A DNA stretch of 64,000 nt from Candidatus Vogelbacteria bacterium RIFOXYD1_FULL_44_32 (GTDB lineage Bacteria; Patescibacteriota; Minisyncoccia; Phycocordibacterales; XYD1-FULL-46-19): contig MHTJ01000004.1 of assembly GCA_001823065.1 (NCBI GenBank), positions 37,839 through 101,838 of the forward strand. The letters are read 5' to 3'. Shown in pieces: positions 6,848 to 61,812 of the stretch (position 1 is the stretch's first letter; the number at the start of each line of letters is the position of its first letter). A program made the translations under genes and the position numbers. The notes under the pieces were generated by a model. The model was not told the origin of the DNA, did no database searches, and saw only the letters and a program-made list of their open reading frames with translations.

Positions 6848-8305
6848 ATGGTAAACGACGGCTCCATTGTGCGTTTCGAAGGCGTGTTTTTTGAACACGG
6901 CCCCAACAAACCCATTCTCAAAGATGTGGGTTTTTCGGTTCGGCGGGGGGCCAAAGTTACCCTTATGGGTCAAAACGGGGCTGGTAAAAGCACTATCTTT
7001 GGTCTAATCACGGGGGCACTAACACCCGATAGTGGTGAGATAAATATCGCGACTCGTCTGACTATTGCCACGGCTCGCCAAGTTTTTCCGCGTGCGGAGC
7101 TAGACCTCACCTTGCGCGAGTTTTTTCAAAAACAATTTAAGGAAAAAATATATGATATAGACCCACGGATTGAGGCCGTACTAGAAGCGGTCAACCTCGA
7201 GGCTGACCACGACCGCCTAGTACGGTCCTTTTCTGGTGGCCAGCAAGCGCGACTTCTGCTCGCCTCGGCCCTTATCCAAGATCCCGACCTTTTGCTTTTA
7301 GATGAGCCGACAAATAATCTCGACCGAGCGGGGATCGAGCATCTCACCAATTTTTTGGTGAACTATAAAAAATCTTGCATTGTTATTTCCCATGATGCCG
7401 ACTTTTTAAATTCATTTACTCACGGCGTGCTTTATCTCGATGTTTATACCCATCAGATTGAGCAATATGTGGGTGACTATTTCGATGTGATGAAAGAAAT
7501 CAGTGTCCGGATTGAGAAAGAAAATATGAAGAACGCCCAACTAGCGAAGGAGGTGCAGGCCAACAAAGACAAAGCCAACTTTTTTGCCCAAAAGGGTGGC
7601 CGGATGCGCGTGGTGGCGAAAAAAATGCGAACTAAAGCCGAGGAGCTTGAAGAAGCCAAAGTTGATGTGCGCAAAGAAGACCGCACTATTCGGCCGTTTA
7701 CTATTCCCGCTCAACCTCCAGAGGAGCTGGCCGGTGAGGTCCTGGGTTTGACGGCTTATACTATTGTTAAAAAAAGTAAAACGGTTGATAAAAAAACTAA
7801 AATTTCTTTGCGCAAAAATCAGCATCTACTTTTGGCGGGGCCTAATGGGATTGGCAAAAGTACTCTGCTCGAGAAAATTGCGACTGGTACGGCTTATGGG
7901 GCGACGATTGCGCCCCAAGTAAAAGTGGGTTACTACCGTCAAGATTTTTCGACACTCAATTTTGAGGATACAGTTTTTCGGTCACTAATGTCGGCCATGG
8001 TTAAACCCGATGAAGAACATATGCGAGCAGTCGCTGCCGGGTTTCTTATTCGGGGCGAACTAATTGATACTAAAATTGGTCATTTGTCCGAAGGACAAAA
8101 GGGGTTAGTGGCTTTTGCTCGTTTGGTGCTAGAGCGGCCAGGACTTCTTATTTTAGATGAACCGACCAATCATATTAACTTTCGCCACTTGCCGGTGATT
8201 GCCAAGGCTTTAAGCCAATACGAAGGGGCGATGATTTTAGTAAGTCATGTGCCCGAGTTTGTGGCGCAGATAAGGATTGATGAGGTGTTGGATTTGGAAA
8301 AATAG
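6848..8305 (+). CDS. ABC-F family tandem-ATPase protein (no transmembrane domain)
   Basis: Two ABC cassettes: GQNGAGKST...LSGGQQARLLLA...LLLDEPTNNLD and GPNGIGKST...LSEGQKGLVAFA...LILDEPTNH. The start is leaderless-like, 9 nt after TGTTATAAT. Confidence 0.8.
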   Translation: MVNDGSIVRFEGVFFEHGPNKPILKDVGFSVRRGAKVTLMGQNGAGKSTIFGLITGALTPDSGEINIATRLTIATARQVFPRAELDLTLREFFQKQFKEKIYDIDPRIEAVLEAVNLEADHDRLVRSFSGGQQARLLLASALIQDPDLLLLDEPTNNLDRAGIEHLTNFLVNYKKSCIVISHDADFLNSFTHGVLYLDVYTHQIEQYVGDYFDVMKEISVRIEKENMKNAQLAKEVQANKDKANFFAQKGGRMRVVAKKMRTKAEELEEAKVDVRKEDRTIRPFTIPAQPPEELAGEVLGLTAYTIVKKSKTVDKKTKISLRKNQHLLLAGPNGIGKSTLLEKIATGTAYGATIAPQVKVGYYRQDFSTLNFEDTVFRSLMSAMVKPDEEHMRAVAAGFLIRGELIDTKIGHLSEGQKGLVAFARLVLERPGLLILDEPTNHINFRHLPVIAKALSQYEGAMILVSHVPEFVAQIRIDEVLDLEK

Positions 8306-8312
8306 GACGCTC

Positions 8313-8439
8313 GGAAATGTTTTTCGGCGAGCACACATAATTTTCTGCTGAAAATTTGCTCTGCTCGGGCCGCCCGCCTGCCATGCGAGGCACGAGCGGG
8401 CAGGTCGCCCTTGCGCAAGGCTCGGCGAAAAACATTTCC
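8313..8439. repeat. Structured intergenic repeat, family A copy 1 (conserved core enclosed by 20-bp inverted arms)
   Basis: Arms ggaaatgtttttcggcgagc (8313-8332) and gctcggcgaaaaacatttcc (8420-8439) enclose the core cacacataattttctgctgaaaatttgctctgctcgggccg...tcgcccttgcgcaagg. The same core is found at 17191-17250. Confidence 0.7.
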
Positions 8440-8811
8440 TCGCTTAGTTGGAATAGAAACTTATTTGACTCAAACAGATGAAGTTTCCTGTTCGTCTCAT
8501 TGATTTTTAAACTAGCTCCCACGAAAGCGCCAAAAGGTGAGGGTTCGTTGGGGTGATGGGAAGAAGGGGGGGATTAAATACAGTTAATGAAAAGGCCACC
8601 AACCCCCCAAAAAACGCCCTAGACCGGACGTTTTTTGGAGGCAAAATTACCTTGACAAAACAGCATTTTATGTGCTAGGAATGGGTGGTACTTTTGATCG
8701 TTGAAATAACTCCGACCAGCCTATCGCTGGGCGGAGAACCATATAGATAGAAGAAGGGAAGAAGGAAAGAAACAAAGTTTTCGCCGTGAGGCTAAAACAG
8801 GAGGAAGCGTC

Positions 8812-10956
8812 ATGAAGAAGAGTCTGTCGTCGCTGGCCACCCTGGTGGCATTTGTTACAGTTTTGTCGGGTTGTGTCGGGGGGTGTTGCGTGGCTTTCGT
8901 GTCGTGGACAGACGAGTTCACAGATGATGCCGGCCGCATCCTCTTTCCAGTGCAGGTGGACGAAGTCCAGGGTCAAGGTGGCAACACCATGGCCCAGGAG
9001 TCGGCCGAAGTTCGGCTCATGAGGGTCGATTCACAAGGACGTGCCTTTGAGGTGGCGTCCAAAGTGGATGTGACCTTTGGGTCGCTCGGAGATGTTGAGG
9101 CCTACCCGATTTACTCGGGTGCCAAAGGTGCCAAAGATCTCCTGCCGTATGGCTACGTCACTCCTGGTGGCGTGGTCATGCAGAATTTTGGCATCGGCGG
9201 ACACGCCGTGCCGGCGATGTCTGGACAATTCCAGATTGTGAGCTGGGCGAGCGTTGTGCAGGAACACCCAGGTGCCTTTATCGGCGCCGCGTTGGTTTTA
9301 CTAACAGATGTTGAGTTGGTCCGCCCCGATTTTGGCGGACGGCTTTCCGTCTTGTTTACGATCAGCCAGCCTGGGGATTACTTGATTGAGGTTGATGGTT
9401 TTGCCAGCCCGATTTTGGGGGGTAGAGTCATTAGCTTTCTTACTTGCAACTTCTCTTGGACCTCGGAGGTGTTCACCCTGAACCCGCCGGGAATTGAGCC
9501 AGATCGTGATGGCGATGGTGTGCCGGACAGCGAAGATAACTGTCCAGCCACTTGGAATCCTGATCAACAAGATTCCGACCATGACGGTATTGGTGACGCG
9601 TGTGAACGTGACACCGACGGTGACGGCATTTCCGATGATGAGGACAACTGTCCTTTCATCTCCAATCCAAATCAGCTTGATACAGATGGAGATGGTGTTG
9701 GGGATGTTTGTGATAATTCTTCTGGTGAAGGTGAAGGTGAAGGTGAAGGTGAAGGTGAAGGTGAAGGTGAAGGTGAAGGTGAAGGTGAAGGTGAAGGTGA
9801 AGGTGAAGGTGAAGGTGAAGAACTCACGCTCGACTTGTCGATTAAAGAAGGTGGCAACACTTTCGAAGTCGGCGAAGATTTCACGTTGAAGCTTGATATT
9901 GACGGGGCGACAGAGCCTTACAATGTCACATTGCGTGGAACTGGGGCGGAGTTCGTCGCCTTTCGTTTTGAAGACGGTGTCATAACCGTCACGGACCGAA
10001 TCTTGGCCAACGACGTCATCGGCGAGCCAGTGCTTGTTGGTAGCAATATCGAATTGAATTACTTGCCAAAGGTGACGACTGGCGGTGAGTTTGCTTCGAT
10101 TGAGGCCCAGGTAACGGATGCCCAAAGCAACCAAGCCCAGGACTCAGTTGATGTCAAAGTCGTCGTGGCGACCGGTATCGTTCCCAATGTCATCGACCTC
10201 CCTCAACAAGAAGGAGGGGATGATGTCGAAGGAGCCGGTTTTGTAGTTGGTACAATCACGACCCGTTGCAGTGACACCATTGCCGCTGGCCGGATTATCG
10301 ACTACAACCCCAAGGGTGTTCAGCCTTTGGGCACCGCCATTAATCTGGTGGTTTCCACCGGGCCCTGTGGACCGGAGATGACCACCGTGCCCAACGTGGT
10401 TGGTGACTTACTGGTGAATGCGGATGCCGAAATCACTGGTGCCAACCTCGAGGTCGGTAATGTGACGGAAGTCTTCAGTACCGCACCAGTCGGGCAGGTG
10501 ACAATCCAAAGTCCTGTCGGTGGGACGCAAGTGCCCGTCGGTAGTGCGGTGAACCTCACTGTTTCGAAAGGTGAGGAACCGGTGCCTGGGCCATTGGCGC
10601 TAGTTGTTACTTCGGCCGACGAAGATTTTCCCAATAGTTACCAAACTAACGGGACGATGACGTTCAGGGCCAAGATCAACGGCGACGTGCCCGCTCCGTA
10701 TACCGTGCGGTTCCGTGGGTTGCAGAGTGATCAAATTACCGTCACTCTCAATGTCGATGGGTCGGTGACGTTTGTCAGCCGTTCTGGCGGGGCGACGATC
10801 ACCTACGACAGACATCCTTCCGACCCCCGGTCGGTGATGTTTTCCCAGATGATCTTGTTTTCGACGCAGGGTCAGCCAGCTGGTCTCTACTTCCAAGCCG
10901 AGGCAGGCGGGCAAACCGCTGATGTTGGAAACATCTCCGTCGTCGTGACGGATTAG
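8812..10956 (+). CDS. Surface lipoprotein with thrombospondin-type-3-like Ca-binding repeats, (Gly-Glu)16 tract and PASTA/Ig-like C-terminal domains
   Basis: Lipobox signal [21 protein letters not shown] and an AGGAGG SD. Repeated DxDxDGxxDxxDNCP motifs, a (GE)16 tract, and VPNVVGDLL...-type repeats. Confidence 0.75.
9724..9819 (+). repeat. Perfect (GGTGAA)16 hexanucleotide microsatellite inside the lipoprotein gene
   Basis: Read directly as ggtgaa x16; it encodes (GE)16 in frame. Confidence 0.95.
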
Positions 10957-14307: not shown

Positions 14308-14841
14308 ATGATAATAAAGGAAGAAGGAATAATAAAAGATGGTAAGATTATAGTCCAAATAGGTAAGGGTTTGGGTGCTAGGTCTTTGGAATTTTGCTTT
14401 ACTGATTTTTTTAGTAGTATTAGTTTCCTTAAGGAACAAGAAAAAACCCCAGTCAAATCTGACGGTCTTCGCGCTGGGAGTTGGTTTTTTAAATCAAAAA
14501 TGTATATTGTTTCTGGGCAGACACCATATAGTGATGAAGAGATTAAACTGAGAATTAAACATTTTGTTATTAAAAAGGAAAAAGAACTCACTAAAATTTC
14601 AAAAGAAGTTGAGGCCTTTGAAAATTTTGACCAAGCACGGAGTGCCAGAAGAGGAAGAATTCCAGATGATGTACGATTATTTGTATGGCAAAGGGATGAG
14701 GGTAAGTGTATAAAATGTGGTACAAAAGAAAAATTAGAATTTGATCATATAATACCGGTCGTTGCTGGGGGAGCAAATACACAAAGAAACATTCAACTTT
14801 TGTGCGAATTGTGCAATAGAACTAAAGGTAAAAATATCTAA
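14308..14841 (+). CDS. HNH endonuclease domain protein (AT-rich, probably acquired)
   Basis: C-terminal HNH motif CIKCGTKEKLEFDHIIPVVAGGANTQRNIQLLCELCN. GC content is visibly lower than in the neighbouring genes. Confidence 0.7.
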   Translation: MIIKEEGIIKDGKIIVQIGKGLGARSLEFCFTDFFSSISFLKEQEKTPVKSDGLRAGSWFFKSKMYIVSGQTPYSDEEIKLRIKHFVIKKEKELTKISKEVEAFENFDQARSARRGRIPDDVRLFVWQRDEGKCIKCGTKEKLEFDHIIPVVAGGANTQRNIQLLCELCNRTKGKNI

Positions 14842-16532: not shown

Positions 16533-17162
16533 ATGATTGAAATCACACCGGCAATTTTATCGAACACTTGGGGCGATATCGCAGATAAAATCAAAGAAAT
16601 TGGTGATGCTACCACTTGGGTGCAGATTGATGTCTGTGATGGTCATTTTGTACCCAATATTACTTGGGGAGCGCCCGATGATTTGGAACTATTGGATGGT
16701 AAAGCTAAGATTGAAATTCATTTAATGGTGGAGCGCCCTGAAGAAGTGGTGGCGGTGTGGATGAATGTCGCCGACCGACTGGTGGTGCATTTGGAAGCGA
16801 CCGAGAAAATTGAAGATTTGGTGGATGCTTTTCAGTCGACCAATGTTAAATTGGGTTTGGCTTTGCTTGTGGAAACACCAATCGATGATGTGGTGCCTTA
16901 TGTCGACAAAATAGATGTGGTGCAACTAATGGGAATAAAAAAGATAGGGTTTCAGGGTGAAAAATTTGACCCTCTAGTGTTGGAAAAAATAAAAGAGCTA
17001 AGGGCCAAGGCCCCAAATACAAAGATTCAAATTGATGGAGGAATAAATCTAGCCACCGGTCGCGACTGTGTCGCGGCCGGCGCCGACACCCTTGTTGTTG
17101 GCTCGACCTTGTGGGAAAGTGGGGATGTGGTGGATATGATTCATAAGTTTAAAGCGTTATAA
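16533..17162 (+). CDS. rpe: Ribulose-phosphate 3-epimerase
   Basis: Motifs DVCDGHFVPNIT, HLMVERPE and IDGGIN typical of Rpe. Confidence 0.85.
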   Translation: MIEITPAILSNTWGDIADKIKEIGDATTWVQIDVCDGHFVPNITWGAPDDLELLDGKAKIEIHLMVERPEEVVAVWMNVADRLVVHLEATEKIEDLVDAFQSTNVKLGLALLVETPIDDVVPYVDKIDVVQLMGIKKIGFQGEKFDPLVLEKIKELRAKAPNTKIQIDGGINLATGRDCVAAGADTLVVGSTLWESGDVVDMIHKFKAL

Positions 17163-17168
17163 TAAACA

Positions 17169-17275
17169 GAACGCCAGAAGTTAATTTTCATCACACACAT
17201 AATTTTCTGCTGAAAATTTGCTCTGCTCGGGCCGTCGCCCTTGCGCAAGGTTCTGAAAATTAACTTCTGGCGTTC
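17169..17275. repeat. Structured intergenic repeat, family A copy 2 (same core, different perfect 22-bp inverted arms)
   Basis: Arms gaacgccagaagttaattttca (17169-17190) and its exact reverse complement (17254-17275) enclose the family-A core. Confidence 0.7.
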
Positions 17276-17409
17276 CGTGTAGTTTTAAAACTAAAGGAGT
17301 ATCAAAACCTAAATTTGAGAAACTAGGGAGCGCGACGGCGCGAGCTCGAGGAATTTTTTAGCAAAAAAATATCCGTATTCTCAAAATTAGCGTTTTGATG
17401 TGACTCACC

Positions 17410-18279
17410 ATGCAAACCCTCACTGACGACAAGAAAAAATTATTAGCCGAAAAAGCTGGCGACATCCGCCGGTCGGTTATTGAGATGTTGGTGCAAGCGG
17501 GTTCAGGCCACACCGCGGGACCACTGGGGATGGCGGATATTTTTACTGCATTATATTTTCATGTTTTAGAACACGAACCAAGAAACCCCAGCTGGAGCGA
17601 GCGGGACCGGCTGGTGCTGTCCAATGGCCATATTTGTCCGGTGTATTACGCCACTTTGGCGCACGCTGGCTATTTTCCCGTGGAGGAACTGAAAACTTTA
17701 CGTCAGTTTGGGTCACGCTTGCAGGGGCACCCCCACCGCGAATATTTGCCTTATGTGGAGACTAGCTCTGGTCCCTTGGGGTCGGGGCTGTCGCAGGCTT
17801 GTGGTATGGCGCTCGCGGAGAAAATGGATCATGGCCAAAATTCCAACAAATATATTTATTGCCTAATGTCCGACGGCGAGTTGCAAGAAGGCAACACGTG
17901 GGAGGCGGTGCTCTTTGCCGGCAAACAGAAATTTTCTAATCTAATCGTTATTATTGACCGCAACAATATTCAGATTGATGGTTTTACGGAAGACATTATG
18001 CCGCTGGAACCCTTGGCCGAAAAATTTAGCGCATTTAATTGGCATGTCATAGAAATTGATGGTCACAACTTCGACGACATTATCTCGGCGGTGGGCGAGG
18101 GGCAAGCGGTATTTGGCCGGCCGGTGGTGATAATTGCTCACACCACGCCGGGCAAAGGTGTACCGGCTTTTGAGAAAAAGTACGAGTGGCATGGTAAACC
18201 ACCAACCAAAGAGGAGGGGGAGATGGCGTTAAAAGAATTGCGGACATTAGGAGGTAAAATTAAAAGTGAAAATGATTGA
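17410..18279 (+). CDS. Transketolase, N-terminal subunit (split transketolase)
   Basis: Thiamine-diphosphate-binding motifs GSGHTAGPLGMADIF and SNGH. Confidence 0.85.
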   Translation: MQTLTDDKKKLLAEKAGDIRRSVIEMLVQAGSGHTAGPLGMADIFTALYFHVLEHEPRNPSWSERDRLVLSNGHICPVYYATLAHAGYFPVEELKTLRQFGSRLQGHPHREYLPYVETSSGPLGSGLSQACGMALAEKMDHGQNSNKYIYCLMSDGELQEGNTWEAVLFAGKQKFSNLIVIIDRNNIQIDGFTEDIMPLEPLAEKFSAFNWHVIEIDGHNFDDIISAVGEGQAVFGRPVVIIAHTTPGKGVPAFEKKYEWHGKPPTKEEGEMALKELRTLGGKIKSEND

Positions 18280-22497: not shown

Positions 22498-22790
22498 TGA
22501 ACAAGTGAATGACCAACTGACGGAAGGAGGTGATGTCTATGTTGGCCACGAAGTCCCTTGAACATTATTTTGATATGAAGACGACGGCAACCACCGCCAC
22601 GGCCTGACCGGCCATCGGCGCGCGCCCCAACAAACCGGGCATAGGGCCCGGGGAGGAATACCCATGAACATTCGGCGTCCGCGCGACTCAGCCGGCTAGG
22701 TACTCTAGCCATCTGCGTCGCAAATAAATTTGCCGTCCCCCGACCACGTGCCTTTATGGCAATCGCGCACGGGGGGCGGCTTTTCTTTTA
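22498..22790 (+). ncRNA. Candidate ~290-nt GC-rich transcript (promoter to terminator), possibly dual-function with a micro-ORF
   Basis: The unit starts at a consensus promoter and ends at the hairpin gccgtccccc...ggggggcggc plus a T tract (22732-22790). It is GC-rich with several internal hairpins and contains no long ORF. Confidence 0.3.
22539..22607 (+). CDS. SD-led 22-codon micro-ORF (MLATKSLEHYFDMKTTATTATA)
   Basis: AGGAGG at 22525-22530, 8 nt before the ATG at 22539; TGA stop at 22605. Confidence 0.25.
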   Translation: MLATKSLEHYFDMKTTATTATA

Positions 22791-23783
22791 CAATTTTTTA
22801 GGAGCGTAATCAGCTGGAGCTTCAGCTAAATATTTTTCAATTTTTTCTTTGGTCAAAAGGCCAGATTGGGCACCAACAGATTGCACTACTGACATCGAGT
22901 TTATCGGCGCGCGCTTGAGCGCCTCCGGGACACTCATTCCTAAAGCAATAAAAGAAGTAAAGGTCGAGGCAAAAGCGTCACCGGCTCCCGTGCGACTTAT
23001 TGGTGATTTTGGGTCGGGGTAAATTGGCATTTGCCACATGTCGGTACCGTCAAAAGTGTAGGCGCCATTTGGCCCGTCAGTCAGACCCACTATTTTGGGA
23101 CCCAAATTTTTAATGCTGGTCAATAGATTTTTCACATCAGTCTCGTCTGGAGTTTTTAATATTCGCCGTGCTTCTTCTAGGTTGCAGACAAATATTTCGG
23201 TCCGAGCAAAAATATCGGGCAGTTTATCTGGGCCCAAATTTATTTGAAAAGTCCCTGGTTGAAAGGCTAATTTGGTTTCGGGGTGAGCCAAAAGCCAGGT
23301 CGCCAACTGGTGGTGAAAATCAAGCGAGTTTTCACCTAGCGAGCTAAGGTAAATCCAGCGCGGGTTGCCAATATCCGGCAAACTATAATCATATTTTTCG
23401 TGCTTAATTAAAATAGTCCGTTCGGCGCCATACCACAAAACATAATGATAATTGGTTTTTTGGCCGGCATTGGTTTTTACCAAATCAGTCGCGACATTTT
23501 CCTTAGCTAAACTTGCTAGGGCTTCTTTACCTTCGTCGTCATCACCAATATTAGTCAGAAGACCAGTAGTAAGGCCCAGACGGGAAGCCGAGACAGCGGC
23601 ATTGGGCGAATTGCCGACCGCAGGCACAATGGTGACCGACTCGTAGGGGATTTTGTCACCGAAAGCCAGACAGATTTTGCAATTGTCTTTATTAATATCA
23701 CAATTGACCTCGGCCTCTTGCAGTTTAATAAAAGCATCAGTAGTAATATCGCCAATTGCTAAAATGTCTAGTTTTTTATTCAT
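22788..23783 (-). CDS. PfkB-family carbohydrate kinase (ribokinase-like)
   Basis: LDILAIGDITTD N-terminal motif and the GAGDAF anion hole. Start chosen at MNKKLD, which has an upstream TATAAT and AAAGG. Confidence 0.8.
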   Translation of the reverse strand: MNKKLDILAIGDITTDAFIKLQEAEVNCDINKDNCKICLAFGDKIPYESVTIVPAVGNSPNAAVSASRLGLTTGLLTNIGDDDEGKEALASLAKENVATDLVKTNAGQKTNYHYVLWYGAERTILIKHEKYDYSLPDIGNPRWIYLSSLGENSLDFHHQLATWLLAHPETKLAFQPGTFQINLGPDKLPDIFARTEIFVCNLEEARRILKTPDETDVKNLLTSIKNLGPKIVGLTDGPNGAYTFDGTDMWQMPIYPDPKSPISRTGAGDAFASTFTSFIALGMSVPEALKRAPINSMSVVQSVGAQSGLLTKEKIEKYLAEAPADYAPKKL

Positions 23784-23819
23784 TTCTAAATTATACCTTT
23801 CTCTGTAATTATTCCCAAA

Positions 23820-24554
23820 AATATTGGACACCGAGTGTCCAATATTTTAAACTTATGATAATGAGAAAGATAAAAATTTGTGAGGGGGAGTATTATCACA
23901 TTTACAATCGTGGAGTAGATAAAAAAGACATTTTTATTGATAAACGAGATTACGCCCGGTTCTTATTTTGTGTTTTGTTTTTCCAATCGCCACTTTCATT
24001 AGTTAATCCTCCCTCCTATATTAATTATTTTATTGGACACTCGGTGTTCAATATTTCTCAAAAAATTAAAAAACAAATAATTAGTGATAAGTATGTTGAG
24101 TTGGTGTCTTTTATATTTATGCCCAATCATTTCCATTTAATTGTTAAGGAAAAGGTGGCAGGGGGAATTTCTCAATATATGCAAAGAATTCAAAATTCTT
24201 TTACAAAATATTTTAATACAAAATATAAAAAGAATGGGCATTTATTTCAGGGGCCATATCAAATTGTTTATATTGAAGATGATGAACAGTTACTTTATTT
24301 ATCATCATATATACATCGGAATTGTCGGGTACTTAATGGTTGGAAGAATAAGGAGGAAAAGTATCCGTGGTCAAGCTACTCTGATTTTTTAGGCCCAAAT
24401 CGGTTTGGTGGTCTATTAGAACCAGAAATTATTATGTCCGAATTTAATAATGCTGGTGATTATAAAATAGAGGTTCAAAACAGTGGCGCCAAAGAGATAA
24501 TTGAAGATTTATTAATTGATAATTGATAATATTGGACACTCGGTGTCCAATATT
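23820..24554 (+). mobile_element. IS200/IS605-family (or RAYT-like) element with 27-bp palindromic termini
   Basis: aatattggacaccgagtgtccaatatt at 23820-23846 and its reverse complement at 24528-24554 flank a HuH tyrosine-transposase ORF. Confidence 0.7.
23855..24526 (+). CDS. tnpA: IS200-like HuH tyrosine transposase (TnpA / REP-associated-like)
   Basis: HIYNRG, HuH motif MPNHFHLIV and catalytic-Tyr motif YIHRN. Start taken at MIMRKIKI. Confidence 0.75.
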   Translation: MIMRKIKICEGEYYHIYNRGVDKKDIFIDKRDYARFLFCVLFFQSPLSLVNPPSYINYFIGHSVFNISQKIKKQIISDKYVELVSFIFMPNHFHLIVKEKVAGGISQYMQRIQNSFTKYFNTKYKKNGHLFQGPYQIVYIEDDEQLLYLSSYIHRNCRVLNGWKNKEEKYPWSSYSDFLGPNRFGGLLEPEIIMSEFNNAGDYKIEVQNSGAKEIIEDLLIDN

Positions 24555-24601
24555 TTGTTTTTCTAGAGAAGATGTAAAGTCTTTATGGTAGAATAGGAGG
24601 A

Positions 24602-25468
24602 ATGAAGACATTAATTGAATATATTCAGGAGGCAGATAAGGGAGGTTGGGCCCTGGGGCATTTTAATATTTCTAATATTGAGGGCCTGTGGGGGGTGTTT
24701 CGGGCGGCCGAGGCTGAAAAATTACCAGTCATTATTGGGGTGTCCGAAGGGGAACGAAATTTTATTGGTATTAAACAGGTTAAAGCTTTGGTTGATAGCT
24801 TGAAGGCCGAATATAACTATCCCATATTTTTAAATGCGGACCATACTTACTCCCTAGAAGAAATAAAAAAAGTGGTGGATGCGGGGTATGACTCAGTGGT
24901 GGTGGATGGGTCGAAACTAAGTTTGGAAGATAATATTACCCTAACGAAAACCGCGGTGGCTTATGCTAAAAGTGTGAACCCTAATATCTTGGTAGAAGGG
25001 GAGATTGGTTATATTGGCACTTCGAGCAAATTGCTGGACGAAATACCAGAGGAGGCCGCGATTTCAGGCGAGGCCTTGCCCTCGCCTGAAATCGCGGCCC
25101 AGTTTGTGCAAGCTACCGGCGTGGACTTGCTCGCTCCAGCAGTGGGTAATTTGCATGGTATGTTAAAGTCGGGGACTGATCCGCGTTTGGATATTGAATT
25201 GATAAAAAATATGCGAACCAAATGTGGGGTGCCACTGGTTTTGCATGGTGGGTCGGGTATTACCGATGAAGATTTTCGGTCGGCGATTAAAGCCGGTGTC
25301 TCGATGATTCATATTAATACCGAAATTAGGATAGTTTTTCGTGATGCTTTAAAAATATATTTGCAAAATAATCCAGACGAGATTGCACCGTACAAAATAA
25401 TGGCTCCGTCTATGCACGCGATTGAACAGAAAACCACCGAGCGATTGCGTTTATTTGCTGGGCGCTAA
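24602..25468 (+). CDS. fba: Class II fructose-bisphosphate aldolase
   Basis: Motifs GHFNISNIEG, LNADHT and LHGGSG. AGGAGG SD. Confidence 0.85.
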   Translation: MKTLIEYIQEADKGGWALGHFNISNIEGLWGVFRAAEAEKLPVIIGVSEGERNFIGIKQVKALVDSLKAEYNYPIFLNADHTYSLEEIKKVVDAGYDSVVVDGSKLSLEDNITLTKTAVAYAKSVNPNILVEGEIGYIGTSSKLLDEIPEEAAISGEALPSPEIAAQFVQATGVDLLAPAVGNLHGMLKSGTDPRLDIELIKNMRTKCGVPLVLHGGSGITDEDFRSAIKAGVSMIHINTEIRIVFRDALKIYLQNNPDEIAPYKIMAPSMHAIEQKTTERLRLFAGR

Positions 25469-41894: not shown

Positions 41895-42007
41895 GGTTGC
41901 AAATGCTTGACCCAGCCCCTGCCCAGGCCGAGGGCGGGTGCCGAATAGGCACATCTCCCTTGTGTGTGAAGCGCGAGGCCGTATGACCTCTGGGGCTTGG
42001 GTATTAG

Positions 42008-42228
42008 GGCGCTCGCCTAGCTTCCCTTTCAAAACACATCGCCACACCTCTAGAGGTGTGGCGATTCTGCTCCACCGTGGCCGTTTGGCCTTGCCCCTGC
42101 TGGGGCAAAATACCTAAGGCCAAAACCCTGCCGGCCGACAGCTCCGCAAGGTTTTGGAAAGGGAACTAGGCTCACTAACTCGAAAAAGATAAATGGTCAG
42201 CAAAAGGAGTAAGCTCGCTGGGTTGGGG
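42008..42228. repeat. Structured intergenic repeat, family B copy 1
   Basis: Shares a ~170-nt core with 51637-51810 and 54513-54690 (cctttccaaacaca...ctgctccagcggggccgtttggcc...ggccaaaaccctgccggccg...ccgcaaggtttggaaaggg...ctcgctgggttgg). This copy has an extra ~35-nt insert before the 3' tail. Confidence 0.75.
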
Positions 42229-42262
42229 GATTACGAAGCGCGCAGTAGAGCTTGTCTTAGGG

Positions 42263-45390: not shown

Positions 45391-45430
45391 AACCCGCCGC
45401 CGGCTCTGGTGCCGGCGGCGGGTTTTTATT
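45391..45430 (+). terminator. Rho-independent terminator
   Basis: Hairpin aaaacccgccgccggc-tctggt-gccggcggcgggttttt. Confidence 0.85.
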
Positions 45431-45444
45431 TTCCAACCAAGCGA

Positions 45445-45464
45445 GGAAATGTTTTTCGCCGAGC
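45445..45464. repeat. Solo copy of the family-A1 20-bp arm (ggaaatgtttttcgccgagc)
   Basis: Exact reverse complement of 8420-8439 with no partner arm or core nearby. Confidence 0.7.
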
Positions 45465-45491
45465 CTTTGATATATTTCCCAACCCAGCGAA

Positions 45492-45733
45492 CATTCTAAT
45501 TTTGGACTTTCGCGAGAGTGAATTTGGAAATCAAGGAAGCGAGCAGTAAATTCCATCTGTTTGACCCTGTGGAATAAGTAGACAAACTTTTTTAAGCAAT
45601 TAATATTCTGTTCTGAAGTTATATAATCACTAAATGTTAAAGTCTCTATTCCACGGGGGAGTTATGGAATTTGCGTCGTGAGATGAGTATGATTTCCAAT
45701 TTACGAAGCGTCCCCAGTCCAAAAATTAGAATG
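45492..45733. repeat. MITE-like nested inverted-repeat element abutting the dnaE stop
   Basis: Outer inverted repeat cattctaattttggact (45492-45508) / agtccaaaaattagaatg (45716-45733); inner repeat tgaatttggaaatca (45519-45533) / tgatttccaatttac (45690-45704). Confidence 0.5.
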
Positions 45734-50940: not shown

Positions 50941-51636
50941 ATGAATACAGAACCCCAGAAATTTGCAGAGGCCATTGGTATTGGTTTCACTAATATAGAT
51001 TTTTTGATTCAGGCCTTTACGCATCGGTCTTATTTAAATGAGCATCGGGAAATTAGCCACGACCACAACGAACGGCTCGAGTTTTTGGGTGACGCCGTCC
51101 TCGAGCTAGTGGTCACCAATTTTCTATACAAAACTTTTCCCGGGAAACCCGAGGGCGAGCTGACGGCCTACCGGGCCGCTTTGGTCAACACCACTACTCT
51201 GTCGGATGCGGCCAAAAAACTAGGGATGAATGATTATTTGCTATTGTCCAAAGGGGAAGCCAAAGACACCGGCCGGGCCCGCCAATATATTTTAGCCAAC
51301 ACTTTCGAGGCGGTGATTGGCGCCATTTATCTTGACCAGGGTTATGATGTGGCCACGGACTTTATCACGACCAACTTATTGTATTTGATTAAGGAAATTG
51401 TGGCCAAAAATTTGTGGCAAGATGCCAAAAGTTTTTTTCAAGAAAAGGCGCAGGAGGTAGAGGGGGTGACACCGGCTTATGAAGTATTGAAACAGATTGG
51501 ACCCGACCACAACAAATGCTTTACTGTTGGCGTGTATTTGCGGGACGAACTAGTCGCCGAAGGGGAGGGACACTCGAAACAAGAGGCGGAACAGGAGGCC
51601 GCAAAGGGGGGATTGGAGAAAAAGGGGTGGGGGTAA
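50941..51636 (+). CDS. rnc: Ribonuclease III
   Basis: RNase III signature ERLEFLGDAVLEL and a C-terminal dsRBD. Confidence 0.9.
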   Translation: MNTEPQKFAEAIGIGFTNIDFLIQAFTHRSYLNEHREISHDHNERLEFLGDAVLELVVTNFLYKTFPGKPEGELTAYRAALVNTTTLSDAAKKLGMNDYLLLSKGEAKDTGRARQYILANTFEAVIGAIYLDQGYDVATDFITTNLLYLIKEIVAKNLWQDAKSFFQEKAQEVEGVTPAYEVLKQIGPDHNKCFTVGVYLRDELVAEGEGHSKQEAEQEAAKGGLEKKGWG

Positions 51637-51810
51637 GCACTCGCCTAGCTTCCCTTTCCAAACACAGAAAAAGCCCCAGCGGGCTTTTCCTTCTGCTCCA
51701 GCGGGGCCGTTTGGCCTAGTGCCTACTGGCACAAAATTCTCCAAAGGCCAAAACCCTGCCGGCCGACACCTCCGCAAGGTTTGGAAAGGGAACTAGGCTC
51801 GCTGGGTTGG
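51637..51810. repeat. Structured intergenic repeat, family B copy 2
   Basis: Starts immediately after the rnc stop. Same core as copies 1 and 3 but with different hairpin inserts (aaaagccccagcgggctttt; gtgcctactggcac). Confidence 0.75.
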
Positions 51811-52280: not shown

Positions 52281-54512
52281 ATGCGTCTCCTTTCCCTTGA
52301 ACTATCTGGTTTCAAGTCGTTTGCTAAAAAGACGACGCTTCTTTTTGAGTCGCAGGTCACTTCGATTGTCGGCCCCAATGGTAGTGGCAAGTCCAATGTG
52401 GCCGAGGCCTTTCGTTGGGTGTTGGGCGAGCAGTCGCTAAAGTCACTGCGGGGTAAGCGGGGCGAGGATTTAATTTTTAATGGCGGTGGCGGCCACAGCC
52501 AGCAAAGCAAAGCCAGTGCCACGGTGGTTTTTGACAATCGTGACAAGCGCCTCGCTTTTGACTTTGACGAAGTAGCTATCACCCGTAGTGTCTATCGTGA
52601 TGGGACCAATGAATATAAAATAAACAATTCGGTCGTGCGTTTGAAAGATGTGCTCGAGCTGTTGTCGGGGGTGTCACTGGGGCCATCGGGACATCATATT
52701 ATTAGTCAGGGTGAAGCGGACCGAATTTTGAACGCGAGCTTGAAAGAAAGGCGCGAGATGATTGAAGAGGCGCTGGGGCTAAAGGCCTATCAGTGGAAAA
52801 TTGAAGAGAGCGAAAGAAAGTTGGCCAAAACGGAAGAAAATATCCGGCAGGTGGAGTCACTGCGGCGGGAAATTGCGCCCCATATTAAATTTCTTAAAAA
52901 ACAGGTAGAAAAAATCGAAAAGATTGATGAATTACGGCGTGATTTAAAAAAGAAATATCTCGACTATTTTATTCGCGAGGATGACTATCTCAAAAGTGAG
53001 CAAGCCGAAATCAATTCTCGACGCGCTAAACCGGAAGCGGAGCTGGCCGGGGTAATAAATAAATTGGCGCAAGTTGAAAATTTGTTAGCCTCACCCGATG
53101 AGGTGACCAAGGACAAGATGCAGGCGCTAGCTACCGCCGACCGAACTTTGCGGGAAATGCAAAGTCAGAAAGATGAATTGGCGCGCTCTTTGGGCCGGTT
53201 GGAGGGGATGATCGAAATTAGGTCTGAGGAAAAGCCTCTTACCGAGGGCGGTCGTAGTGTCCCTTTTGGAGAAATAAAAGATTTCACCGGCCGGCTGGCG
53301 GAGAGTATTGTGCGGGCCGAAGAAGCTGGTGATTTTTCAGTGCTTAAAAATATTTTAGGGCAGATTAAGGTGGAAATAAAAAGTTTTGTTGACCGGTTTC
53401 GCGAGGCACCGGCTGTGCGAGACAACCAAGTGGCTCTCTCGAGTTTAGTGCAGGAAAAAGAAGAAGCGACAAGGGAACTGGGCGAACTGGAAGCGCGTGA
53501 ACTAAATTTGCGGGAGGAAAGAAAAAATATGGCCAGTAGTTTGGAAGCGGGGCGCGAGCGTCTCCACGGGGCCGAGCGGGAACGTTATGAATTGCGGGCC
53601 CAAAAAAGTGAGTGGCAGGCAGTGTTGCACGACTTGTCGGCGCGCGAGCAAACCTTGACCCGCGAGCGGGAAAATTTTACTAAAGAAATAGCTGAAGCCC
53701 GGGTGCTGGTGGACAGCGAAGTGGCAGATTTTCGGCGGTTGGTACCGCTGGTACCGGATATGAATGAAGCGCGTGATGCTCAATATGACCGCTTACGCGA
53801 AATTGAAAAAATCAAAATTCGACTAGAGGATATGGGGGTCGAGACTGGGGATGTGCTCGAAGAATACAAAGAGGTGACCGACCGGGACCTTTTTCTAGAA
53901 AAAGAATTGGTCGATTTACATCAAAGTGCTGATTCGTTGCAGAAAATAATGGCGGAATTAAAAGAAAAACTGACGGTCGAGTTTAAAGAGGGTATCGATA
54001 AGATTAATAAAGAATTTAGTAATTATTTTACCCTCATGTTTGGTGGTGGCACCGCCGAGCTGAAAGTGGTGGCCCAGCCTAAACGTCGTTCGTTGGCGGA
54101 TGAAATACTAGAAGGGACTAATCTCGGCGAGTATGCCGAGACGGCTAAACCTGAAGAGGGTATTGATATTGGCGTATCTTTACCGCGCAAAAAAGTCAAA
54201 GGGCTGGTGATGATGTCGGGTGGGGAAAGAGCGCTGACCTCGATTGCACTCCTTTTTGCAATGTCGCAAGTTAACCCACCACCGTTTATTATTTTAGATG
54301 AAACTGATGCGGCCCTCGATGAAGCCAATTCACGCAAGTATGGCGATATGATAGAACGGCTGGCCAAAGAGTCACAACTGATTTTGATTACGCACAACCG
54401 CGAGACCATGTCGCGAGCTGGCGTTTTGTACGGGGTGACGATGGGCGCCGACGGGGTGTCAAAATTACTCTCAATCAAGTTTGATGAGGCCGCTTCAACT
54501 TTTGCAAAGTAG
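52281..54512 (+). CDS. smc: SMC-family chromosome-segregation ATPase (compact, 743 aa, no obvious hinge)
   Basis: N-terminus MRLLSLELSGFKSFAKKTTLLFE...IVGPNGSGKSNV. C-terminus LSGGERALTSIALLFA...ILDETDAALDEAN. A long coiled-coil region lies between them. Confidence 0.75.
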   Translation: MRLLSLELSGFKSFAKKTTLLFESQVTSIVGPNGSGKSNVAEAFRWVLGEQSLKSLRGKRGEDLIFNGGGGHSQQSKASATVVFDNRDKRLAFDFDEVAITRSVYRDGTNEYKINNSVVRLKDVLELLSGVSLGPSGHHIISQGEADRILNASLKERREMIEEALGLKAYQWKIEESERKLAKTEENIRQVESLRREIAPHIKFLKKQVEKIEKIDELRRDLKKKYLDYFIREDDYLKSEQAEINSRRAKPEAELAGVINKLAQVENLLASPDEVTKDKMQALATADRTLREMQSQKDELARSLGRLEGMIEIRSEEKPLTEGGRSVPFGEIKDFTGRLAESIVRAEEAGDFSVLKNILGQIKVEIKSFVDRFREAPAVRDNQVALSSLVQEKEEATRELGELEARELNLREERKNMASSLEAGRERLHGAERERYELRAQKSEWQAVLHDLSAREQTLTRERENFTKEIAEARVLVDSEVADFRRLVPLVPDMNEARDAQYDRLREIEKIKIRLEDMGVETGDVLEEYKEVTDRDLFLEKELVDLHQSADSLQKIMAELKEKLTVEFKEGIDKINKEFSNYFTLMFGGGTAELKVVAQPKRRSLADEILEGTNLGEYAETAKPEEGIDIGVSLPRKKVKGLVMMSGGERALTSIALLFAMSQVNPPPFIILDETDAALDEANSRKYGDMIERLAKESQLILITHNRETMSRAGVLYGVTMGADGVSKLLSIKFDEAASTFAK

Positions 54513-54690
54513 GGCACTCACCTCACTTCCTTTTCCAAACACATCGCCACACCTCTAGAGGTGTGGCGATTTTGCTCCAGCGGGGCCGTTTGGCCTCGTG
54601 TCTGCTGACACAACAATACCTAAGGCCAAAACCCTGCCGGCCGCCACCTCCGCAAGGTTTGGAAAAGGAAGGAGGTTCGCTGGGCTGGGG
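54513..54690. repeat. Structured intergenic repeat, family B copy 3
   Basis: Starts immediately after the smc stop. The outer stem changed compensatorily relative to copies 1 and 2 (cacttccttttccaaac / gtttggaaaaggaagg). Confidence 0.75.
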
Positions 54691-61539: not shown

Positions 61540-61812
61540 GTCCCCAATTCGGCAAGATTGAGTTGCGACCGCCGTCCGAAGCAACGTTTCTTGCATTTAT
61601 CTCAGATGGTTTTAAGCCCGAAGCGTCAAGCAGAGGGAGTTCTGTGGTTTGGTTTCATTTGTCATTTCTTTTTCGGCAGATGTTTTCTGGAGTACGGATA
61701 TTTTCTTGCTAGAAAATTCCTCGAGCTCGCGCCGCCGCGCTCCCTAGTCTCCAGCAAACACCCGCCTTCAACGAAATGATTTTGGGTAATTATTTTTTAA
61801 TAATAATTTTTA

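Follow-up and report, generated by a model that had tools for sequence, protein, structure and literature searches.

A family of small hairpin-forming repeats with a conserved core and private arms in Patescibacteria: probable mobile elements lying between and inside genes

Our analysis of a 64,000-nt stretch of the genome of Candidatus Vogelbacteria RIFOXYD1_FULL_44_32 (this whole stretch is referred to as the window) concerned two structured repeats, A1 after an ABC-F gene and A2 after rpe, which possess the same core enclosed by unrelated, self-complementary arms. The results indicate that A1 and A2 are probably copies of a small mobile DNA element, non-autonomous, hairpin-forming and of a selfish kind, similar to Rickettsia palindromic elements (RPEs) and miniature inverted-repeat transposable elements (MITEs). 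This interpretation is drawn from the dispersal of the element, from filled and empty alleles, from in-frame copies in both orientations within genes, from arms that consist of host DNA and from the lack of RNA-type wobble pairing. The family is abundant in Patescibacteria of the Parcubacteria/Paceibacteria group. A family of small hairpin-forming mobile repeats in Patescibacteria is apparently undescribed; literature searches on structured RNA, inverted repeats, MITEs, RPEs and inverted target duplication in Patescibacteria or the Candidate Phyla Radiation (CPR) returned nothing relevant.

A1 and A2 agree at every position over 41 nt, cacacataattttctgctgaaaatttgctctgctcgggccg, and over a further 16 nt, tcgcccttgcgcaagg; the two stretches together make up the 55-nt core of A2, and the A1 core is the same except for a 32-nt insert (coordinates are given in Table 1). 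Identical cores between unrelated arms fit a recent common source of the core. The first-pass annotation, made from the window sequence alone, had described an identical ~60-nt core between perfect 20–22 bp arms. Its coordinates were right, as were the unrelatedness of the two pairs of arms and the extra internal hairpin of A1; the cores are indeed identical, but at 55 nt in A2 and with an interruption of 32 nt in A1. Perfect pairing was found for the 22 bp of A2, whereas the A1 arms pair at 19 of 20 positions, the exception being G8327·G8425, a G·G mismatch that is also present in A1-type copies from four other assemblies. The A1 arm type recurs in loci L008, L015, L017 and L021. The element extents as first given were too short, as both stems reach farther out: the A1 stem runs on past a CUC/U internal loop into CG/CG and then UAGG/CUUA (8303–8451), which means that the upstream stop codon is itself paired, and the A2 stem extends out to 17166–17278, with its core closed by just 2 bp (17193–17194/17250–17251) and a UC × UC loop. 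The solo A1-type arm previously reported at 45445–45464 exists, and represents the 3' end of a truncated minus-strand A1-type copy that retains AAGG from the end of the core together with the 3' arm and, on its 3' side, the flank motif CTCGCTTGGTTGG.

Folded as RNA, A1 reached −67.2 kcal/mol (z −4.3), and folding z-scores ranged from −4.3 to −9.1 for RNA or DNA and for either strand, with none of 200 shuffles as stable. These scores, together with recurrence in more than 100 independent loci, exclude chance as an explanation of A1 and A2. Three further candidates were rejected. Inspection of the core revealed no convincing −35/−10 pair on either strand that would make it a promoter; read-through or recoding of the stop codon was dismissed as the A1 and A2 cores fall in different frames after the stops; and the attC pair RYYYAAC/GTTRRRY was absent from the A1 and A2 stem ends, the neighbours of both elements being housekeeping genes in conserved synteny and not integron cassettes.

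The first-pass annotation had allowed for a core confined to A1 and A2, and the searches for the core, which gave more than 100 loci, clearly showed otherwise. A degenerate pattern matched 37 loci in species-representative genomes, nine of which were true elements, all from Patescibacteria (Yonathbacteria, Parcubacteria and relatives of the window genome), and a second pattern identified at least 116 metagenome loci, counted irrespective of taxonomy. Viral contigs and the records of phages and plasmids contained no core. Copies can be dense: L025 holds three in a span of 3.2 kb, and L051 also has three. A covariance model was built from an 11-copy seed alignment consisting of A1, A2 and the nine copies from species-representative genomes, and 103 copies were collected with this model in the fetched loci. 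The GenBank titles of L008, L015 and L021 read 'uncultured Candidatus Saccharibacteria', a label that looks wrong. CAYHFD01 and CAZIIR01 encode rpe proteins 77% and 67% identical to that of the window in the same gene order, and from these identities the assemblies of L015 and L021 are close relatives of the Vogelbacteria genome; cross-phylum transfer to Saccharibacteria is not needed.

The consensus structure from the 11-copy alignment is a three-way junction formed by a long stem of 20 to more than 40 bp made up of the two arms (P1), an unpaired ACRCAUA and two hairpins, where P2 has 7 bp and the loop UGCU, and P3 comprises UUGC/GCAA, a UCU bulge, GC/GC, GGNC/GNCC and a CGUC-type loop, with inserts of 32–95 nt held at the P3 tip in some copies. 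Among 97 distinct copies, 92.1% of the helix cells were paired in comparison to 62.5% after shuffling, and 980 double-sided changes were counted, a level reached by none of 500 shuffles and spread over 33 of the 37 pairs. The covariation score was 0.647; shuffles gave 0.165 and slid registers no more than 0.157. The helices are backed by compensatory changes across many independent sequences, the generic mark of a conserved structured nucleic-acid motif.

Covariation of this strength bears on one of the two readings offered by the first-pass annotation, that of an RNA with a covarying closing helix. In the form considered here this would be a cis-acting 3' untranslated region (3'-UTR) RNA that is transcribed with the upstream gene and has spread by duplication because it is useful, an explanation we consider unlikely and which could, with no greater likelihood, involve a hairpin that stabilises the mRNA, a site for processing or decay by RNase III, a brake on translation termination (as is described for repetitive extragenic palindromic (REP) elements near stop codons) or a protein or ligand site. 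The architecture is typical of such an RNA, with conserved unpaired nucleotides, covarying helices and variable tip inserts, and arms have diverged in place while remaining complementary (L040 after rpe, and IscS site 1; both described below). The type of base change points the other way. P2 was 99.8% paired, with AT, TA, CG and GC interchanging and nearly no G·U or mismatch, and P1 contained 64 G·U pairs versus 51 A·C mismatches; G·U that is no commoner than A·C is not the mark of selection on an RNA helix. Rfam 15 reported just two tRNAs for the whole window at the gathering score, and searches of A1 and B2, a related family B copy in the window, at E-values up to 10 gave no credible match and no known self-cleaving ribozyme.

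The placement of copies relative to genes can likewise be argued in both directions. Many copies lie within ~10 nt of a stop codon and fill the entire spacer between two complete, unrelated genes; a split gene or intron was rejected for such copies since the flanks are different complete genes (FtsZ/TrxB, HisRS/methyltransferase, MreB/HolB). All five A and B copies of the window are co-oriented with the upstream gene, and A1, A2, B2 and B3 begin at or a few nt from its stop codon. In relatives, the element is situated between the stop codon and a separate intrinsic terminator, indicating that it is transcribed, and orientation follows the upstream gene in about two-thirds of informative cases (~2:1). 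All of this would be expected of a 3'-UTR RNA. Against such an RNA as the main explanation, about one-third of the copies that lie between genes of one direction run against transcription, including at least 15 that are antisense between tandem genes; a related family C copy of the window is antisense in a 5' leader; and in-frame, stop-free copies occur in both orientations inside long conserved open reading frames (ORFs), although in-gene copies are recognisable only where the ORF stays open, which is an ascertainment caveat. In-frame copies were observed in an IscS-like cysteine desulfurase (sense in L054, L095 and L122; antisense, at another site, in L052), in Dus (sense in L051 and antisense in L063, in the same linker with different arms), in PheT (L103), in a phosphoglucosamine-mutase-like gene (L133) and in one further ORF (L158). 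For PheT, the comparison of filled and empty alleles was limited to nearest homologues 57% identical, whose linker is unalignable.

Filled and empty alleles could be aligned in IscS. Paceibacteria IscS homologues vary from 370 to 484 aa, with inserts of ~20–35 aa present or absent at four or more sites. Site 1 lies between AILGVxxKFxExFF and PHIVTT and contains the A core (insert peptide ...HTYLPAGKLLCSARQPAQGISK...), a different core (...CALPRVRVGTL...) or nothing, and peptides such as HTYLPAGKLLCSARQPAQG would be expected in IscS if the insert is translated. The empty alleles L162 and L163 read ...GAAATTTTTTCT/CATATT..., in comparison to which alleles with the A core are 93 nt longer and the one with the other core 72 nt longer, each gain in length corresponding to a core and a single arm. 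Over its 5' arm, L164 shows 92% identity to empty L162 and encodes homologous residues, and each 3' arm matches the reverse complement of the 5' arm in the same allele, at 26 of 28 positions in L164, 20 of 23 in L054 and 28 of 33 in L166. As judged from these alignments, the 5' arm at IscS site 1 consists of native coding DNA, of which the 3' arm is a newly made inverted copy; that one arm is demonstrably host coding DNA is a further argument against a 3'-UTR RNA. L054, L165 and L166 have the site-specific P2 variant atttgcc/ggcaaat in common although their proteins are 62–98% identical, and for this reason they probably represent one old insertion, the arms of which co-evolved in place despite coding constraint. 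Other families were found at IscS sites 2 and 3, with a GC-rich, CTCG-bearing centre and AT-rich complementary arms, and their inserts are approximately one arm longer than the empty allele. Additional in-frame repeat peptides in IscS include SRVLGLGPDQLEN, GLAGVGSPENRGPEK, QVLGSPRSARP and CALPRVRVGTL, and further insert families are present in homologues such as P0122, P0124, P0129, P0132, P0146 and P0157 and in loci L163–L165.

The second reading of the first-pass annotation was that a small element inserts into palindromic terminators. Our results support a mobile element; they do not support a pre-existing palindrome or terminator. In a generalised form, the core would insert into the centre of existing palindromes, whether terminators or other hairpins, and the arms would be the old palindrome. 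There is precedent in IS1397 and in some members of the IS110 family, for which REP palindromes are the target, and the arms are site-specific while the cores are identical, with two different cores occupying the same IscS site between the same arm type. Core-less perfect palindromes in coding DNA could also serve as targets. One of these, a perfect 21-bp palindrome with a 4-nt loop, lies at IscS site 2 (L163, L164). The other, an inverted repeat whose 20-bp halves pair perfectly around a 6-nt loop (GGCCGCGATTTCAGGCGAGG ccttgc CCTCGCCTGAAATCGCGGCC), lies at 25054–25099 within the fructose-bisphosphate aldolase gene of the window (24602–25468). Nevertheless, we regard insertion into palindromes as improbable. 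On this reading an empty site should show a palindrome without the core; instead, the empty alleles L162 and L163 contain one native arm only, the difference from filled alleles being the core plus one arm. No long palindrome is present at the empty IscS site, although it does contain a short hairpin of its own (GAAAAA...TTTTTC), which by itself would favour a palindromic target. Nor are A1 and A2 intrinsic terminators: their 20–22 bp arms are AT-rich, the core between them is 55–87 nt long, and no T-run follows (the sequence continues as tcgctta... after A1 and ccgtgta... after A2), unlike the genuine GC-rich terminators of this genome (27843–27885, 60739–60777 and 45389–45426). Separate, ordinary GC-rich terminators come after several copies in relatives. 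A two-step route, with the palindrome first and the core second, is conceivable. The aldolase orthologue in L043 has the same length and is not palindromic at this position (SPEIAA versus TPTLAA), and it looks as if an inverted copy of one half of the aldolase palindrome had replaced the other half; hairpin-templated overwriting thus appears to operate in this lineage independently of the core. Of the two earlier readings, the mobile element is the closer one, and the palindrome appears to be created with or after insertion and not to serve as its target.

Among 93 unique copies the arms are nearly all different, with a median pairing of 24 bp and more than 40 bp in some, and stem sequence is not conserved within a genome, as seen for A1 versus A2 and for the Yonathbacteria copies L009, L019 and L025. 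In subfamilies, an inner stem segment is conserved in unrelated flanks, and an outer segment is private to each copy and still complementary. In A2 and in the IscS copies, the transferable unit comprises the core and at most a few flanking pairs, while segments of the arms are conserved in other subfamilies; each stem is specific to its site. At the rpe locus, L040 (rpe 77% identical) carries an A-type element with arms homologous to those of A2 that are much changed with pairing kept, whereas the site after rpe is empty in L044 (rpe 74% identical). CTCG occurs on both arms as a direct, not inverted, repeat at 6/8 or 18–20 nt from the core, being present in 40 and 39 of 91 copies for the two arms, compared to 8 and 17 for CGAG. 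In shell-type copies (A1, the Yonathbacteria copies and L051-Dus), the helix from CGCTCG/CTCGCT to the core is variable in sequence and always 18–20 bp long. L048 has the same right flanks and right arms as L066 and L151 with unrelated left flanks, and its arms are unpaired; this pattern reflects either a rearrangement through the core that they share or an assembly that is chimeric at this repeat. Contigs L040–L042 end just past the element.

These observations can be accommodated by a mechanism in which insertion, or a step soon after it, would involve fold-back synthesis. Adjacent host DNA of the same strand would serve as template either for the inserted hairpin, extended from its 3' end, or for a nascent strand that has just copied it, giving an inverted duplication in place of the usual direct target duplication; alternatively, a replication template switch may be the source of the second arm. 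The same hairpin-templated copying could later keep the arms complementary during divergence, and the CTCG sites may be bound or cut by a trans-acting enzyme. Copies would persist where harm is small, that is after stop codons, in short spacers and in in-frame surface loops, and those within ORFs are presumably translated, like RPEs. At its fullest, this would constitute a new mode of DNA mobility, in which an enzyme reads a folded single strand (core and CTCG at a fixed helical distance) and moves the ~55-nt double-hairpin core, whose insertion primes fold-back and generates an inverted target duplication and a private, self-correcting stem, even in essential genes of the smallest bacterial genomes; we offer this fuller scheme tentatively, as a possible but doubtful one.

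Several points weigh against the reading of A1 and A2 as selfish mobile DNA, and those that concern structure speak for a 3'-UTR RNA. One P3 pair is G-C in 76 and G-U in 15 of 94 copies, with A·C almost absent, and such strand-specific G·U indicates that one particular strand folds, which would suit RNA too. The constant helix length of shell-type copies is not explained by a simple model in which the outer stem comes from the target, and suggests a structure read by a protein at two points. The pairing kept in old, vertically inherited copies could reflect selection on function instead of mutational bias. In addition, the relation of a native arm to its inverted copy was established at a single site, though for two different cores. 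No consistent direct repeat was found at the stem ends and no direct target duplication was identified, the CTCG repeats lying inside the stem at fixed distances from the core. A gene-linkage survey of 1157 clustered ORFs from 124 loci (0.82 Mb of flanking DNA, as windows of genomes) showed no recurrently linked transposase, HUH, recombinase or reverse-transcriptase gene; the recurrent ORF clusters near copies were orthologous housekeeping genes and ORFs reading through the element. No autonomous version of the element was found. Finally, ORFs were called mechanically, and the metagenome loci were pooled irrespective of taxonomy. Host benefit and selfish spread are not mutually exclusive, and an added or alternative role as 3'-UTR RNA could be the natural host-level effect of a 20–40-bp hairpin just after a stop codon.

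That one defined strand folds, that the core is conserved while the arms are free, and that orientation is biased toward transcription would also be consistent with retro-mobile or RNA-guided spread, whereby the core would work as RNA, either a ribozyme or the cognate partner of a reverse transcriptase or nuclease, before being converted to DNA again, and the arms would arise by self-primed fold-back synthesis. Self-priming hairpins are a known route to inverted copies. We consider this explanation very improbable, as neither a reverse-transcriptase nor a nuclease gene was linked to the element at the 124 loci, no known ribozyme or RNA family matched at E-values up to 10, and poly-A or similar hallmarks of retro-elements were lacking.

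As a selfish mobile DNA, the A-type element can be compared to several known systems. RPEs are ~100–150 bp hairpin repeats that are found in intergenic regions and in frame within ORFs, without a transposase of their own. The A-type elements resemble them as short, multi-copy hairpin repeats of small, host-dependent genomes, and are likewise both intergenic and in frame in conserved genes, so that they belong to the same kind. They differ in that the phylum is another one, a sequence relation not being expected, and in having a conserved centre with variable arms made of a host arm and its inverted copy, a layout which, to our knowledge, has not been described for RPEs. MITEs such as Correia/NEMIS, ERIC/IRU, RUP and BOX are similar in being small, non-autonomous and dispersed, in their frequent location at gene ends within transcribed DNA, in their long hairpins and in their association with contig breaks. 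MITEs are defined by conserved terminal inverted repeats and direct target duplications, usually with a parent insertion sequence that has the same ends. In contrast, A-type elements have variable ends and a conserved core, and thus lack such terminal inverted repeats, no direct duplication was found, and no parent insertion sequence was seen in the DNA flanking the surveyed loci.

The REP/REPIN-RAYT system, in which RAYT is a Y1 HUH transposase, shares with the A-type elements extragenic hairpins near stop codons, high copy number and a motif beside the stem (GTAG in REPs, CTCG here). By analogy, a trans-acting enzyme present in single copy would probably recognise A-type elements, like REPs, in folded single-stranded form. 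The REP palindrome is conserved within a genome, whereas the A-type stem is not, no RAYT-like gene was detected in the ~0.8 Mb of flanking DNA (which represents windows of genomes only), and we know of no REPs in frame inside ORFs. The double-hairpin elements and GC clusters of fungal mitochondria are tiny and mobile, consist of two adjacent hairpins and occur both in intergenic regions and in frame in compact AT-rich genomes; they differ from A-type elements in being organellar and much shorter, without a long target-derived stem, and in their unrelated sequence. The inverted terminal repeats of parvoviruses such as adeno-associated virus are T- or Y-shaped and possess GCTC repeats bound by Rep, and rolling-hairpin copying generates inverted copies. 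The likeness is one of analogy, comprising a long stem, two small capping hairpins and (G)CTC(G) motifs at fixed stem positions; those repeats are the ends of viral genomes and not dispersed chromosomal repeats, and here neither a Rep gene nor homology was found.

The window contains two A, three B and two C copies, in addition to remnants (Table 1); the covariance model detects the B and C copies as well as the A copies. The first-pass annotation had suggested one superfamily with family B, and this was borne out: the motifs common to A and B are significant (TGCTCnnnnnGGGCCG, six matches versus 0.74 expected; CGCAAGGYT, five versus 1.09), and the A-type model recovered all three B copies (E 8e-6 to 2e-3). 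The long conserved extension of family B is located exactly at the P3 tip, where A-type inserts occur. Copy B1 sits ~150 nt downstream of gyrB, past the terminator hairpin of that gene. Family C has a related core (ACGGAUA, P2 with the loop UGCU and a GC-rich P3) and arms of its own; the large ORF downstream of its first copy begins at ~61814 and runs off the window end, while the second copy is antisense to the flanking genes, faces A2 tail to tail and takes up the whole 5' leader of tkt. Family D is a rod-like hairpin of ~190 nt with three stacked helices and an apical loop with CTCGCT/TGCTC. In two relatives, L040 (952–1142) and L043 (1083–1262), it is intact and follows the gene upstream of the PASTA gene, the place that corresponds to its position behind A1, and in the window 3' halves alone remain, adjoining A1-type sequences. 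The flank motifs TAGGnCGCTCG... and ...CTCGCTGGGTTGG are common to A1, B and D. Families B and C are relatives of A, and D has flank motifs in common with it.

Table 1. Positions of the A-type elements, their parts and neighbouring genes, and related copies and remnants in the window
Feature	Position	Strand	Remarks
A1, whole element	8303..8451	+	From ABC-F stop codon UAG to 3' flank motif; 136.5 bits with covariance model
ABC-F gene directly upstream of A1	6848-8305		Stop codon UAG at 8303-8305
CGCTCG motif before A1 5' arm	8308-8313	+	With CUC internal loop
A1 5' arm, ggaaatgtttttcggcgagc	8313..8332	+	20 nt; 95% complementary to 3' arm
A1 core	8333..8419	+	Junction ACACATA 8333-8339; P2 8339-8356 (loop TGCT); P3 8356-8419
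A1 extra 32-nt hairpin	8373-8404	+	At P3 tip
A1 3' arm, gctcggcgaaaaacatttcc	8420..8439	+	G8425 opposite G8327 (mismatch)
A1 3' flank motif, CTCGCTTAGTTGG	8439-8451	+	
Family D 3' half directly after A1	8456..8560	+	Homologous to intact D in L040 and L043
rpe gene directly upstream of A2	16533-17162		Stop codon 17160-17162; A2 begins 3 nt later
A2, whole element	17166..17278	+	124.3 bits with covariance model; folding z −7.5
A2 5' arm	17169..17190	+	22 nt; perfect complement of 17254-17275
A2 core	17195..17249	+	55 nt; minimal form
A2 3' arm	17254..17275	+	
Family C copy 2	17283-17417 (or 17290..17410)	-	41 bits, E 4.5e-8; 92% inverted-repeat match
Family B copy 1 (B1)	42003..42230	+	E 0.0018; long conserved P3-tip extension, same flank motifs
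Truncated A1-type copy, downstream of dnaE	45425..45467	-	93% complementary to 8417-8459
Second family D remnant	45478..45564	-	Ends in GTTCGCTGGGTTGGG
Family B copy 2 (B2)	51633..51810	+	E 1.6e-6; overlaps rnc stop codon
Family B copy 3 (B3)	54510..54690	+	E 1.7e-4; begins at smc stop codon
Family C copy 1	61653-61788 (or 61660..61780)	+	47 bits, E 1e-9; upstream of large ORF

Other features of the window were also recorded. Three copies of a palindrome of 20-odd nt, TATTGGACACYSRGTGTCCAATA, lie at 23811–23847, 24020–24056 and 24519–24555 between divergent genes (22788–23831 on the minus strand, and the aldolase gene), and from their sequence look like operator sites of a dimeric regulator. 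A tandem array of the hexanucleotide GGTGAA at 9688–9831, for which a 12-nt period had been reported, encodes a Gly-Glu run in a 714-aa PASTA/thrombospondin-repeat protein, the gene of which is split differently in the public record (L001). An HNH endonuclease ORF (14308–14841) is situated between gatB and gap, where L040 has a different small ORF and L043 has none.

Patescibacteria possess very small, streamlined genomes that are thought to be poor in selfish DNA. At least seven hairpin repeats are nonetheless present in one 64-kb window, and essential genes (IscS-like, PheT, Dus) are interrupted in frame by copies related to them. For CPR metagenomics, this bears on gene calling, on variation in protein length, on contig breaks and on chimeric assemblies, and the elements offer closely spaced natural markers with which the population genetics of uncultured CPR bacteria can be followed at strain level. 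A conserved centre with private arms, together with the inverted host copy, points to a hairpin-templated mechanism that is undescribed for bacterial repeats in the searchable literature and has a fair chance of being new. An enzyme that reads the core and CTCG, if there is one, would represent a new structure-specific DNA or RNA tool.

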